Shown here one piece after another: positions 47,801-55,120 of a stretch of 64,000 nt of DNA. Position 1 is the stretch's first letter, and every line of letters starts with the position of its first letter. Location: assembly GCA_964572345.1 (NCBI GenBank), contig CAZNFA010000006.1, positions 89,437-153,436 of the forward strand. Direction: 5' to 3'. A program made the translations under genes and the position numbers. Under the pieces are notes generated by a model, which worked only from the letters and a program-made list of their open reading frames with translations, made no database searches and was not told the origin of the DNA. This stretch comes from an uncultured Planctomycetales bacterium (lineage in GTDB: Bacteria; Planctomycetota; Phycisphaerae; UBA1845; Fen-1342).

Positions 47801-50572
47801 CTACGCGAATGCGTAGGTGAACTCGCCTTCCTCGGTTGCACCGAGCTTGAGGGTCGCGGGCTTCTTGTCTTCGCCCATGACTTCGAGCAGGCGGCGGGCG
47901 ATCTCGGGGAGGATCGTCTCGTTGATGATCAAGTTGATGTTGCGGGCGCCGGTGGTCATCACGTCGCAGCGGGAAGCGATGGCGTCGCCGACGGCCGGCT
48001 CGACCTCCAGACCCATGCGGTAGACCGTCTCCAGCCGCTCGCGGATCTTGTTCAGCTTGATATCGACGATCTTCCGCATCGTGTCCGGATGCAGCGGGTA
48101 GAACGGGATCACCGTCAGGCGCCCGATGAACGCCGGGGTGAAGCGCTTCTCCAGGATCGGCTGGACGGCCTTGCGCAGCTCGTCGAGCGAGGGCATGTCC
48201 TTGGGGTCCTGGGACATCTCCATGACCATGTCGCTGCCCTCGTTGCTGGTGAGCATGATCACGGTGTTCTTGAACGAGGCGACGCGACCCTCGCTGTCCT
48301 GGAGCTCGCCCTTGTCGAAGACCTGCATGAACAGCAGGTTGACGTCCATGTGGGCCTTCTCCATCTCGTCGAGCAGGACGACGCTGTAGGGCCGTTGGCG
48401 GACGGCCTCGGTCAGCACGCCGCCTTCGCCGTAGCCGACCAGCCCGGGGGCCGAGCCGATCAGCCGCGAGACGTTCATCGAGCTGGAGTACTCGGTCATG
48501 TTGATGCTGGTCATGAAGCGTTCGCCGCCGAAGATCAGGTCGGCGACGGCCAGGCCGGTTTCGGTCTTACCGGTGCCGGACGGGCCGACCATGAAGATGA
48601 CGGCCAGCGGGAGCTTGGGGTCCTGGAGCTTGCCACTGGCGATGCGCAGGCGTTTGCCGATCTCGTGGATGGCGTGGTCCTGGCCGATGATGCGTTGGCC
48701 GATGCGGTCCTCGAAGTGCAGGATGGCTTCGGCCTGGTCGCGGACCATCTTGCCGGCGGGGATGCCGGTCCAGTCGCTGAGAACCTGGGCGACCACGTCG
48801 CCGTCCACCTGAAGCGGAACCAGCGGGGTTTCCTTGCCGAGGAAGTCGTCGAGCTTCGTGGTAGCGGCGGTTAGGTCGGCGCGGATCTCGTCGAGGGTGC
48901 GTTGCGGCTCAGCGGCTTCGGCCGGGACGCTGGGAGTCTCGCGGGCGCGGACGCCCGCATTCCCCTCGGCCGGCTCGGCCGCGGCGGCGGGGGCGGGTGG
49001 CGAGGCTTCGGGGATCGCGACGGGAGGCTTGCCGTCGCCTTCTTCCGCCTTTCTGGCCTTCTCAACCTCCTCGCGCAGGCGGATGACCTCCTGGGCCATG
49101 GCGCGCTCCTGCTTCCAAGACTTCTCGAGGTCGTCATACTTCTTCTGCTGCTCGACGCGCTCCTTCTTCAGGTCCGCCAGGTCCTCGGGGTCACCAGGAT
49201 GGCCCGCTTCGGCGTCGCGCTCGATCGCCCGGATGGCGGTGTCGAGCTGGATGACGCGTCGGCGGATGTCCTCGAGCGGGCCGGGCGTGGTGTTCAGGCC
49301 GACCGCCACGCGGGCACTGGCCGTGTCGAGCAGCGAGATGGCCTTGCGCGGCAGTTGCTGCTCGGAGAGGTACTGGTTGGACATGGAGACGGCGGCGCGG
49401 ACGGCGTCGTCGAGGATGCGCACCTTGTGGTGGCCCTCGAACTTGTCCTTGGTGCCGCGCAGCATCTCGATCGCCACGTCCACCGAGGGCTCATCGAGCT
49501 TGACCAGCCCGAAGCGCTGGGCAAACGGGGGGTCTTTCTCGATGTATCTTTTGTATTCGGCCCAGGTCGTCGCCGCGATGGTGCGCAGCTCGCCGCGGGC
49601 CAGGGCCGGCTTGAGCAGGTTGGCTGCGTCGGTGCCCGCCCCGCCGCCGCCGATCAGCGTATGGGCCTCGTCGATGAATAGGATGATCGGGTTAGCGGAC
49701 GCGTTGGACGCGTTGACTTCCTTGATGACCTCCTTGAGGCGGCGTTCGAACTCGCCTTTGACGTTTGCCCCGGCGTTGAGCAGCCCGACGTCGAGCGTCC
49801 GGATGGTTACGTTCGCCAGCACCGGCGGCACGTCGTTGGCTATGACGCGCAGGGCGAAGCCTTCGGCGATGGCGGTTTTGCCGGTGCCCGGGTCGCCGAC
49901 GATCAGCGGGTTGTTCTGGTAGCGGCGCATGAGGATGTCGGTGACCTGGCGGATTTCCTGCTCGCGGCCGATGACCGCGTCCACGTTTCCGTCGCGGGCG
50001 CGGGCGGTGAGGTCATAGGTGAACTGTGAGAGGGCGTCGCCCACGCCGGCGACGCCGGGCGCCGCGGCGGGGCGCTCGCCCGGGACGGCGACCTCGATCT
50101 CGCTCGATTCGCCGGTGATGTCGATGAACTTGGTCTTGAGCTCGTTCTCGACGATCTTGTTGAACTCCTCGGTGTAGTCGGTGAAGTAGGCCCGGCTGGG
50201 GTTGCGGACCAGGGCCAGCACCAGCGCCGCGGAGCGGATCTTCGGCAGCGACAGCTCCAGCGACGCGATCTGCCAGGCCTCGCTGAGCCAGTCGGCCAGG
50301 AAGGGTGAGAACTGCGGTCGCCCGCTGTTGCCGGTCTTGAGGTCCTCCAGCGACCGGTTGAGCGCCTGCCGCAGCTTGGAGACGTCCACCTTGAAGTGGT
50401 CGCAGATGCACATCAGGTCGCTCGAGCCGACGTCGAGCAGCGGCGCGAGCATGTGCTCGATGGTGATCTCGTAATGGGTGCGATTGATGCAGGCGCCGGC
50501 GGCGGCCTCCAACGCACGAATGCAGACGTTGTTCAGCTGCTGCCGCAGAAGCTTCATGTCTACATGAGCCAT
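47801..50572 (-). CDS. tssH: Type VI secretion system ATPase TssH (ClpV)
   Basis: 923-aa AAA+ Clp/Hsp100 protein. The ClpV-type N-domain (KLLRQQLNNVCIRALEAAAGACINRTHYEITIEHMLAPLLDVGSSDL...GRPQFSPFLADWLSEAWQIASLE...IRSAALVLALV) and IGREQEIRQVTDILMRRYQNNPLIVGDPGTGKTAIAEGFALRV match the TssH consensus rather than ClpB. Two AAA modules with Walker A GDPGTGKT / GPSGTGKT. It is adjacent to tssG/F/E. Confidence 0.85.
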   Translation of the reverse strand: MAHVDMKLLRQQLNNVCIRALEAAAGACINRTHYEITIEHMLAPLLDVGSSDLMCICDHFKVDVSKLRQALNRSLEDLKTGNSGRPQFSPFLADWLSEAWQIASLELSLPKIRSAALVLALVRNPSRAYFTDYTEEFNKIVENELKTKFIDITGESSEIEVAVPGERPAAAPGVAGVGDALSQFTYDLTARARDGNVDAVIGREQEIRQVTDILMRRYQNNPLIVGDPGTGKTAIAEGFALRVIANDVPPVLANVTIRTLDVGLLNAGANVKGEFERRLKEVIKEVNASNASANPIILFIDEAHTLIGGGGAGTDAANLLKPALARGELRTIAATTWAEYKRYIEKDPPFAQRFGLVKLDEPSVDVAIEMLRGTKDKFEGHHKVRILDDAVRAAVSMSNQYLSEQQLPRKAISLLDTASARVAVGLNTTPGPLEDIRRRVIQLDTAIRAIERDAEAGHPGDPEDLADLKKERVEQQKKYDDLEKSWKQERAMAQEVIRLREEVEKARKAEEGDGKPPVAIPEASPPAPAAAAEPAEGNAGVRARETPSVPAEAAEPQRTLDEIRADLTAATTKLDDFLGKETPLVPLQVDGDVVAQVLSDWTGIPAGKMVRDQAEAILHFEDRIGQRIIGQDHAIHEIGKRLRIASGKLQDPKLPLAVIFMVGPSGTGKTETGLAVADLIFGGERFMTSINMTEYSSSMNVSRLIGSAPGLVGYGEGGVLTEAVRQRPYSVVLLDEMEKAHMDVNLLFMQVFDKGELQDSEGRVASFKNTVIMLTSNEGSDMVMEMSQDPKDMPSLDELRKAVQPILEKRFTPAFIGRLTVIPFYPLHPDTMRKIVDIKLNKIRERLETVYRMGLEVEPAVGDAIASRCDVMTTGARNINLIINETILPEIARRLLEVMGEDKKPATLKLGATEEGEFTYAFA

Positions 50573-50651
50573 GGTCTATTCACTCCAACTCCGCTAACCA
50601 TAGATCAGGTCTACGGACCCGACCTGCCGACTACAGTCCTGCCCCGCACCG

Positions 50652-54321: not shown

Positions 54322-54409
54322 CGTCGGACCTCCCAGTCCGACGTCTCGACGCCATGAACGCGGGCGCGCCGGACTCGGAGGTCCGGCGCTACAGTTTTGC
54401 ACCGGACTG

Positions 54410-55120
54410 CTAGGGCAGCTCTATCCCGCCGCGCGAGCCAACGGCGTGCCCCACGATGGTGTCTGCCAGGTGGGTCAACAGACCGTGCCAGGCCTGGCAC
54501 AGCGGCGGCATTTCGTAGTGCAGCAGGTCGGCCAGCAGCACCATGTCGCGGGCCTCGAACGCGTCGCGGAGTTCCCGCAGCTTCTCGGCCAACTCGCTGA
54601 AGTGTTCGCGTATGGGACGTTCGCCATATTCGACCGCCGTCAGGTCTTCGCCCAGCAAGGCGCAGCACCGCACGACGACTTGCTGGCCCGCCTGCCAAAC
54701 GCCGACCAACTCACCGACACGCTCCAGGGCCTCGGTGACCTGACCGGCGTTGAGCTGGTCCGCGACTTCCTGCTGGGCCTGGCCTGCCGCCGTGAGCTGC
54801 TCCGCGGCTTGGCGCAGGGCGTCGGCGACGATGGCGCGCGGGTCACCCGACTCCAGATCAACCCGGTCCTGCGGCGCAGGTGGCTGCGACAAACGCGCGT
54901 CGAGATCTTCCGGGAGCAGAAGCTGGCCGTTTACGGCGACGGAGACGACCAGCCGATCAGGCAGGTGTTCCGCGCGAACCCGGTCAATGAGCGCTTGCAG
55001 CGTGTCCGCGGAAGTGAAGTCTGCCTCCATGCGTTGGCCGTCGAGCGTTACGATCACAGGTCGCTCTCCGTTTTCGGTGATATCGGACCGTCGGCACCGG
55101 GCGGCTGAGCGCCCGGGCAA
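54410..55120 (-). CDS. Hypothetical protein upstream of tssE (unassigned)
   Basis: 236-aa ORF, GC3-rich. The N-terminal PVIVTLDGQRMEADF...VVSVAVNGQLL suggests a small beta-grasp-like segment followed by a helical region. No T6SS core family recognised. Start uncertain. Confidence 0.4.
   Translation of the reverse strand: MPGRSAARCRRSDITENGERPVIVTLDGQRMEADFTSADTLQALIDRVRAEHLPDRLVVSVAVNGQLLLPEDLDARLSQPPAPQDRVDLESGDPRAIVADALRQAAEQLTAAGQAQQEVADQLNAGQVTEALERVGELVGVWQAGQQVVVRCCALLGEDLTAVEYGERPIREHFSELAEKLRELRDAFEARDMVLLADLLHYEMPPLCQAWHGLLTHLADTIVGHAVGSRGGIELP

Follow-up and report, generated by a model that had tools for sequence, protein, structure and literature searches.

The 64-kb stretch of DNA analysed here (the window), part of contig CAZNFA010000006.1 from an uncultured Planctomycetales bacterium, carries four genes of a type VI secretion system (T6SS), tssE, tssF, tssG and clpV (tssH), standing together with no other recognisable T6SS gene around them. 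We consider it likely that these genes are a sub-operon of a proteobacterial-type T6SS-i, the remaining genes of which form a dispersed regulon in other parts of the genome. The best reading is that the system is split rather than broken, although sheath and tube genes were not found in the lineage sequence that was searched. The block belongs to a lineage of Phycisphaerae that disperses its T6SS core genes, in some genomes as far as single tssE or clpV genes, and the window is the most clustered state found in that lineage, not an exceptional truncation.

An intact block of T6SS-i-type genes

All four genes are co-oriented between 47801 and 53964 (Table 1), with gaps of 143 nucleotides (nt) between tssE and tssF, 11 nt between tssF and tssG and 79 nt between tssG and clpV. 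Genes in the window, where GC content is 61-69% in 2-kb windows, were chosen by third-position GC and then checked with profiles. As judged by the NCBIfam equivalog models, the four products are T6SS-i-type equivalogs. Full-length matches were obtained for TssF (TIGR03359, 651 bits against a cut-off of 260), TssG (TIGR03347, 324 bits against 143) and TssE (TIGR03357, 107 bits against 53); ClpV passes the TssH model TIGR03345 with 1059 bits (cut-off 885) and fails the ClpB model TIGR03346 with 676 bits (cut-off 1232). An earlier interpretation made from the letters of the window, referred to below as the sequence-only reading, had recognised four contiguous minus-strand genes for TssE, TssF, TssG and ClpV, and only the gene starts needed revision. 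The possibility raised there that these open reading frames (ORFs) might prove to be ClpB and unrelated proteins was checked by the same profiles, which identify them as TssE, TssF, TssG and TssH.

The revised starts of tssF (53410), tssE (53964) and tssG (51635) agree with gene calls on identical public contigs, which include a tssE of 136 amino acids (aa) and a tssG of 327 aa; an alternative GTG start of tssG lies at 51683. The 587-aa TssF occurs as an identical product on three independent public contigs. A TTG-start TssF of 595 aa was discarded: its lookup returned no match, and the public gene call has the ATG start that gives 587 aa. Because JGI contigs from three samples match the window at 99.99-100% identity, and two Logan runs encode the identical products in unchanged order, the locus is no assembly artefact.

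Selection on the block was estimated as the ratio of nonsynonymous to synonymous substitution rates (dN/dS) against the relative L004, which is 94-96% identical. The values are 0.115 for clpV, 0.080 for tssG, 0.081 for tssF and 0.133 for tssE, and all four genes are under purifying selection. With reading frames and ATPase motifs intact, dN/dS of 0.08-0.13 and conservation across a whole lineage, the suggestion of the sequence-only reading that the T6SS might be degenerate found no support. In public data the lineage ClpV comprises 58 90%-clusters (64-100% identical) and the lineage TssE more than 110 (at least 52% identical), and a sharp gap separates both clades from other T6SS homologues, which reach at most 49% for ClpV and 45% for TssE. 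Because these clades are tight and stand apart from all other homologues, they point to long vertical inheritance and not to recent fragmentary transfer.

ClpV retains the Walker A and B motifs of both AAA modules (GDPGTGKT/ILFIDE in module 1, GPSGTGKT/VVLLDE in module 2). Its RRYQNNP motif occupies residues 216-222, directly ahead of the Walker A of the first AAA domain. Used as a query against the PDB, the N-domain (residues 1-172) retrieved ClpV N-domains only, those of Vibrio cholerae (3ZRI/3ZRJ), enteroaggregative Escherichia coli (EAEC; 4HH5/4HH6) and Pseudomonas aeruginosa (4UQW), and no ClpB or ClpA N-domain. The best match, to 3ZRI/3ZRJ, extends over residues 4-158 (E 1e-17) and covers the ClpV-specific N-terminal helix region of 3ZRI; 3ZRJ is the structure solved with a sheath (VipB) peptide. 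By these matches the N-domain is of ClpV type, i.e. of the domain class that recognises the sheath subunit, although binding of TssC is only predicted. The N-domain and the RRYQNNP signature, on which the sequence-only reading had based its distinction from ClpB, were thus both found, together with the failure of the ClpB model. A low-complexity linker of ~80 residues (~509-587), rich in Ala, Pro and Glu, lies between the AAA modules. Compared with every other T6SS ClpV, the lineage ClpV is 47-50% identical, whereas those others share 55-69% among themselves; the TssF of the lineage, unlike its ClpV, is not unusually divergent.

Search for the remaining core genes

Profile hidden Markov models (HMMs) for TssB, TssC, Hcp, TssM, TssL, TssA, VgrG, TssK, TagF and Fha were built from complete clusters fetched as relatives, the identities of the members being checked with Pfam. 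None of these profiles found a match in the six-frame translation of the whole 64 kb, and the major ORFs, when scanned with Pfam, included no TssA, TssB, TssC, TssJ, TssK, TssL, TssM, Hcp, VgrG or TagF; for TssJ these Pfam scans were the search, with no dedicated profile run. The same profiles found no TssK, TssL, TssM, TssA or TagF, and no Hcp or VgrG, in the window or the related loci described below (PAAR proteins had no dedicated profile). The sheath genes tssB and tssC were found neither in the window, nor in the 10 kb past its right end, nor within 10 kb on either side of 20 related loci.

The window spans only 10 kb upstream of tssE, and the outward extension covers the right end only. 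There, a public contig that is 100% identical in the overlap reaches 10 kb further and is free of T6SS genes; its products there are a CHASE2-cyclase, PGI, ManC, LysE, a tRNA-editing protein and a subtilase. The sequence-only reading had noted the absence of tssA, tssB, tssC and hcp upstream of tssE and of vgrG and tssM downstream of clpV, and the Pfam and HMM scans of the window bear it out; it had also allowed that the remaining core genes might lie immediately outside, and none was found in the 10 kb past the right end. Four linked core genes do not make the locus a complete clustered T6SS-i.

Wider searches recovered no TssC that could be assigned to the lineage. When the TssC of the nearest complete cluster was compared with a set of 5.8 billion proteins, the best 120 matches were all at least 71% identical and none was named Planctomycetota. 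A TssC profile run against 1.84 billion 50%-cluster representatives placed the near TssCs in one cluster; the other named TssC clusters among these representatives were one from Myxococcales/Nannocystis and one from Deltaproteobacteria. A GC-biased DNA pattern of the TssC motif QLPY-x5-R-x-AHY-x-KV retrieved 80 loci from metagenome contigs, nearly all of them canonical clusters, and the few solitary tssBC loci in that scan (L103, L128, L123/L062) showed no tie to the lineage. Plasmids searched by tblastn with TssF gave only proteobacterial T6SSs at up to 42% identity, and no planctomycete plasmid. Two further candidates were set aside: P0240/L058, with a TssE 45% identical, is a non-planctomycete canonical cluster, and representative P0427, with a TssF 32% identical, belongs to an unrelated complete cluster.

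Dispersal of T6SS genes among relatives

A TssF scan of one genome per species (GTDB) returned 47 loci, ~22 of them in Phycisphaerae/Planctomycetota metagenome-assembled genomes (MAGs) with TssF 71-98% identical; the tier below, at 42-53%, belongs to other phyla. The closest relative, L004 (Planctomycetota CSMAG_2679), is 94-96% identical in DNA. Across the Phycisphaerae loci the T6SS block is kept and the flanking genes differ, and the HMMs described above found no further core gene within 10 kb on either side. The non-planctomycete relatives, by contrast, sit in canonical clusters ordered tssL-tssM-tagF-tssA-tssB-tssC-hcp-tssE-tssF-tssG-clpV-vgrG, which makes isolation of the block a trait of one lineage and, since these are the nearest relatives outside it, indicates that the ancestor probably had a complete contiguous cluster.

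Within the lineage the block itself comes apart. Among genomes with adequate flanks, tssE-F-G-H is contiguous in 10; four have tssF-G-H with tssE not within 10 kb, and single genomes have tssE on the other strand 7.6 kb away, tssE-F-G without clpV, or tssE-F only. In CAZCMA01, 3.5 kb separate tssE from tssF, and neither tssG nor clpV could be recognised. Solitary genes complete the series: the MAG JANQNU01 carries tssFGH on contig 7 and tssE alone, beside truB, on contig 90; JANRJD01 has tssE beside truB, followed by an FHA-GAF-PP2C gene, and a solitary clpV on a different contig; and in the cultivated isolate Phycisphaerae bacterium RAS1 the clpV homologue, 69% identical and annotated 'ClpB', is solitary. 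The split T6SS that the sequence-only reading had offered as one of its options is therefore supported by a block present in ~22 Phycisphaerae species, with genes dispersed down to single ones.

Solitary tssE adjoins truB in two related MAGs (L053 10001-10414, L057 10001-12089). Several neighbours recall T6SS regulators: an FHA-GAF-PP2C (SpoIIE) gene follows the solitary tssE of L057, an 806-aa FHA protein is encoded ahead of tssE in L016, and a Ser/Thr kinase follows clpV in L010. The FHA, PP2C and kinase neighbours could be remnants of T6SS threonine-phosphorylation control, or a coincidence; FHA, PP2C, Ser/Thr kinase and ECF-sigma genes, which adjoin T6SS genes in some relatives, are possible regulators but too common in planctomycetes to count as evidence.

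Proposed mechanism and alternative explanations

In a T6SS, the cytoplasmic baseplate has six wedges, assembled from TssE, TssF, TssG and TssK. Through them the VgrG hub is docked onto the TssJLM membrane complex, and they also nucleate the polymerising Hcp tube and TssBC sheath. After firing, the ClpV N-domain binds the contracted sheath, TssC is unfolded and the subunits are recycled. The window encodes the wedge (minus TssK) and the recycler. We know of no role for ClpV except on the sheath, and to our knowledge TssE, TssF and TssG have no function outside a contractile baseplate. Because these proteins have no other known role and the N-domain is still of ClpV type, we infer that the partner genes are elsewhere. 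In the scenario that we favour, an ancestral contiguous cluster would have been broken up in this lineage, its genes now acting as a dispersed regulon in which the four-gene block is the largest piece still linked, and tssB, tssC, hcp, vgrG, tssK, tssJLM and tssA would be located at other chromosomal sites, one by one or a few together. A T6SS that fires is predicted here, not observed.

Three observations weigh against this scenario. Neither TssB, TssC, Hcp and VgrG nor TssK, TssL, TssM, TssA and TagF was found in the ~550 kb of lineage sequence made up of the window, 10 kb on either side of 20 related loci, and six loci with solitary genes. As evidence, the absence counts for little, because ~10 genes scattered randomly in genomes of roughly 5 Mb would be expected to give only ~1 match in ~550 kb, and the probability of none is ~0.3. 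No promoter or shared regulatory motif linking the dispersed genes was found, and the unusual divergence of ClpV could mean an altered role.

Two of these points would also suit a non-canonical module, another of the options in the sequence-only reading: sheath, tube and membrane complex would have been lost, and TssEFG and ClpV would now serve some other purpose. ClpV might, for instance, act as an unfoldase, general or specialised, for which a wedge-like complex provides the adaptor or the substrate platform. The lineage ClpV does diverge from other ClpVs markedly more than those do among themselves, and clpV is kept even when solitary, as in RAS1 and JANRJD01. Such a module nevertheless seems unlikely: the N-domain remains ClpV-type over the very helix region that is specific to ClpV, the wedge proteins would need a function outside the baseplate, the missing genes are missed in too little sequence to carry much weight, and strong constraint on four interacting machine parts is explained most simply if the machine still exists. 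That the whole Phycisphaerae lineage, RAS1 included, has kept only TssE, TssF, TssG and a fast-evolving ClpV in a role unrelated to contractile injection is, in our judgement, quite improbable.

A cluster in the course of being lost, with four genes not yet pseudogenised, would account for the incompleteness of the locus in the window and for the further reduction seen in relatives, L019 having tssE-F only and L055 no recognisable tssG or clpV after tssF. We regard such decay as very unlikely, given intact reading frames with full-length profile matches, the low dN/dS values, a TssF that is 71-80% identical across about 20 species with no synteny left in the flanks, and the many ClpV and TssE clusters of the lineage in public data. 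It would be more surprising still if an ordinary complete locus had been cut by the window edge, or if the contig were an assembly or binning chimera. The short span upstream of tssE leaves some room for a cut, and the 47 kb on the clpV side are uninformative on sequence past the left end; the whole window and the 10 kb past its right end, however, are free of other T6SS genes, near-identical contigs from the three JGI samples and the two Logan runs reproduce the locus, and the same isolation is seen in 20 relatives with 10-kb flanks on both sides. The split system with dispersed partner genes remains our preferred reading.

Flanks of the block and other features of the window

A hairpin-repeat array directly follows the clpV stop codon and is the probable 3' boundary of the operon. 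It consists of palindromic TTGACCGGTCNGAGACCGGT in three copies and ACATTAACCCTNGCTGGCGC in two, which are confined to this array within the window, where chance alone would give no copy; they may serve as terminators or as REP-like elements. Upstream of tssE, the presumed promoter region is assigned by position only: no sigma-70-like site was found between 53965 and 54129, sigma-54-like matches across the window were no commoner than chance, and no usable result came from scanning the sequence upstream of tssE for terminators.

Beyond this region the sequence-only reading had listed a small secreted protein on the opposite strand, an unassigned 236-aa ORF, a DUF962 protein and a STAS protein. 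These genes were confirmed, the unassigned ORF being a 215-aa DUF8042 protein that looks like a beta-grasp plus a helical domain, with the Mpo1-like (former DUF962) and STAS proteins further upstream. The DUF8042, Mpo1-like and STAS proteins were considered as hidden T6SS parts and rejected, having no T6SS match in Pfam or NCBIfam, as was the 63-aa ORF, which has no T6SS match and is too short for a scan on its own. Homologues of the DUF8042 and Mpo1-like proteins each occur in only 2 of ~20 related loci. An otherwise 100% identical JGI contig (L183) differs from the window by a 417-bp indel at 54192-54608, through which the contig lacks most of the 63-aa secreted ORF as well as the 3' end of the DUF8042 gene, so that a DUF8042-like ORF runs into the tssE start; no direct repeat is evident flanking the indel.

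On the other side, beyond the repeat array, lies a lower-GC stretch with the Ymh protein, a 337-aa ORF without matches, an RNA motif and the SoFic gene. The SoFic product aligns over residues 20-383 with profile positions 5-359 of 361, a full-length match, and the gene is a real SoFic anti-phage defence gene by this profile, its defence activity being predicted only. The repeat array and the Fic/Abi-like genes of the sequence-only reading thus reappear as the array, Hypoth_Ymh and SoFic; of its defence-like island the SoFic part stands, and the Ymh part has only a weak PADLOC match. Because the segment 45102-47568, with the 337-aa ORF and the Ymh gene, is replaced in L004 (15182-16751) by ~1.6 kb of unrelated DNA, this segment directly downstream of clpV is a variable island. 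It is not conserved beside the T6SS block in other relatives, and no functional link was seen. The Acido-Lenti-1 motif sits between the SoFic gene and the 337-aa ORF, which are 850 nt apart, near short tandem repeats of 8 to 11 nt at 44884-44971; a 155-aa 'ORF' at 44544-45011 is probably not a gene.

Elsewhere in the window, a lone gene resembling the large subunit of phage terminase lies beside folD, and no other phage genes were recognised around it. A protein with immunoglobulin-like domains, a lipoprotein gene group and a bacterial serpin (Table 1) are unconnected to the T6SS genes.

Table 1. Features of the 64-kb window, in window coordinates
Feature	Position	Strand	Description
tssE	53554-53964	-	136 aa; gp25-like baseplate wedge subunit; Pfam GPW_gp25 64 bits
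tssF	51647-53410	-	587 aa; baseplate wedge subunit; Pfam T6SS_TssF 582 bits
tssG	50652-51635	-	327 aa from ATG at 51635; wedge subunit; Pfam T6SS_TssG 318 bits
clpV/tssH	47801-50572	-	923 aa; Pfam Clp_N/AAA/AAA_lid_9/AAA_2/ClpB_D2-small set
Hairpin-repeat array	47440-47800		directly after clpV stop; repeats within 47453-47767
Presumed promoter region	53965-54129	-	165 nt from tssE to divergent 63-aa ORF; position only
63-aa signal-peptide ORF	54130-54321	opposite to tssE	
Hypoth_Ymh-domain protein	46116-47279		weak PADLOC match
Acido-Lenti-1 RNA motif (Rfam RF01687)	44569-44614	-	46.4 bits; gathering score 37
SoFic gene	43128-44294	-	PADLOC SoFic 386 bits; Pfam Fic_N, Fic, HTH_13
Terminase large subunit-like gene	39152-40690	-	Terminase_6C; NF033889 83 bits, below cut-off 150
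Serpin	36552-37937	-	bacterial serpin
Immunoglobulin-like protein	17775-22088	+	1437 aa; ~10 immunoglobulin-like domains
Lipoprotein gene group	13512-17566	+	LPP20/FlgT_N-like

Significance

The components described here are known families at the equivalog level, and the novelty is in their organisation and lineage-wide dispersal. T6SSs are known in Planctomycetia, e.g. in Rhodopirellula baltica (PMC2660368, PMC5394234, PMC6461901). Full-text searches covering open-access papers and preprints turned up no account of a T6SS in Phycisphaerae, in RAS1 or under the MAG names, and none of lineage-wide dispersal of T6SS core genes. T6SSs are usually counted by cluster-based detection, which would score the present genomes as T6SS-negative or 'partial'; because such detection misses dispersed genes, the prevalence of T6SSs in Planctomycetota may be underestimated. 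Should the partner genes exist, the lineage would be a natural system in which to test how a machine of 13 components is co-regulated without operon linkage, and the cultivable RAS1 puts the regulation of a dispersed machine within experimental reach. Should they be absent, a new function would have to be assumed for the wedge and ClpV, and with it a new role for T6SS baseplate parts. The locus would be highly interesting only if the sheath and tube genes were truly absent, to which we give little chance.

Comparison with known systems

Canonical T6SS-i clusters (L023/L024, Zixibacteria-like; L025/L043, Kiloniellaceae; L058) have the order tssA-tssB-tssC-hcp-tssE-tssF-tssG-clpV-vgrG, which is also that of the H1-T6SS of P. 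aeruginosa. In the window the order and orientation of the four genes are kept, as are the short gaps between them, at 42-53% identity for TssF, 44-50% for ClpV, 34-44% for TssG and 29-45% for TssE. Unlike these clusters, it lacks tssA, tssB, tssC, hcp, tssJKLM and tagF upstream and vgrG downstream, and holds unrelated housekeeping genes and a variable island where they have T6SS genes.

The window TssF aligns over its full length (residues 5-578, E 2e-93) with the wedge TssF of the EAEC Sci-1 system (6GIY, 6GJ1, 6N38), and tssE and tssG are adjacent to tssF, as expected for a wedge of the type TssE-TssF2-TssG-TssK. The EAEC wedge includes TssK, whereas neither the window nor the surroundings of any relative yielded a tssK, and the wedge encoded here is a predicted one. 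Like the V. cholerae ClpV (3ZRI/3ZRJ), the window ClpV has a matching N-domain and two intact AAA modules; it differs in the extra ~80-residue linker, and in that no TssC partner was found. Extracellular contractile injection systems and T6SS-iv cluster a phage-like sheath, a tube, a baseplate of gp6/gp7 type and a Cdc48-type AAA ATPase, and have no ClpV, TssF or TssG equivalogs. An assignment of the locus to these systems was ruled out by its T6SS-i-specific TssF, TssG and TssH equivalogs; there is also no sheath or tube gene nearby.

Detached blocks are not confined to planctomycetes. Loci of Thiomargarita/Thiotrichaceae (L027, L028, L030) have tssE-F-G alone within up to 10 kb on either side, another MAG (L026) has tssF-G-clpV alone, and Polyangiaceae loci (among L032-L046) have clpV-fha-hcp-tssEFG with no tssBC within 10 kb. 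Because the same genes are found detached in these groups, tssE-F-G(-clpV) is a recurrent detachable unit of split systems in several phyla. What sets the Phycisphaerae lineage apart from other split loci is that the break-up goes down to solitary core genes and is common to the whole clade. A different T6SS lineage is found in the Phycisphaerae MAG JAHBXN01 (L181, JAHBXN010000003.1 1-15587), which has the contiguous full set tssM...tssA-B-C-hcp-E-F-G-clpV-vgrG, with ClpV 47%, TssF 43%, TssG 36% and TssE 35% identical to the window. The ordinary contiguous T6SS of JAHBXN01 shows that the class Phycisphaerae can host ordinary clusters, and hence that dispersal is the history of this T6SS lineage and not an obligate feature of the class.

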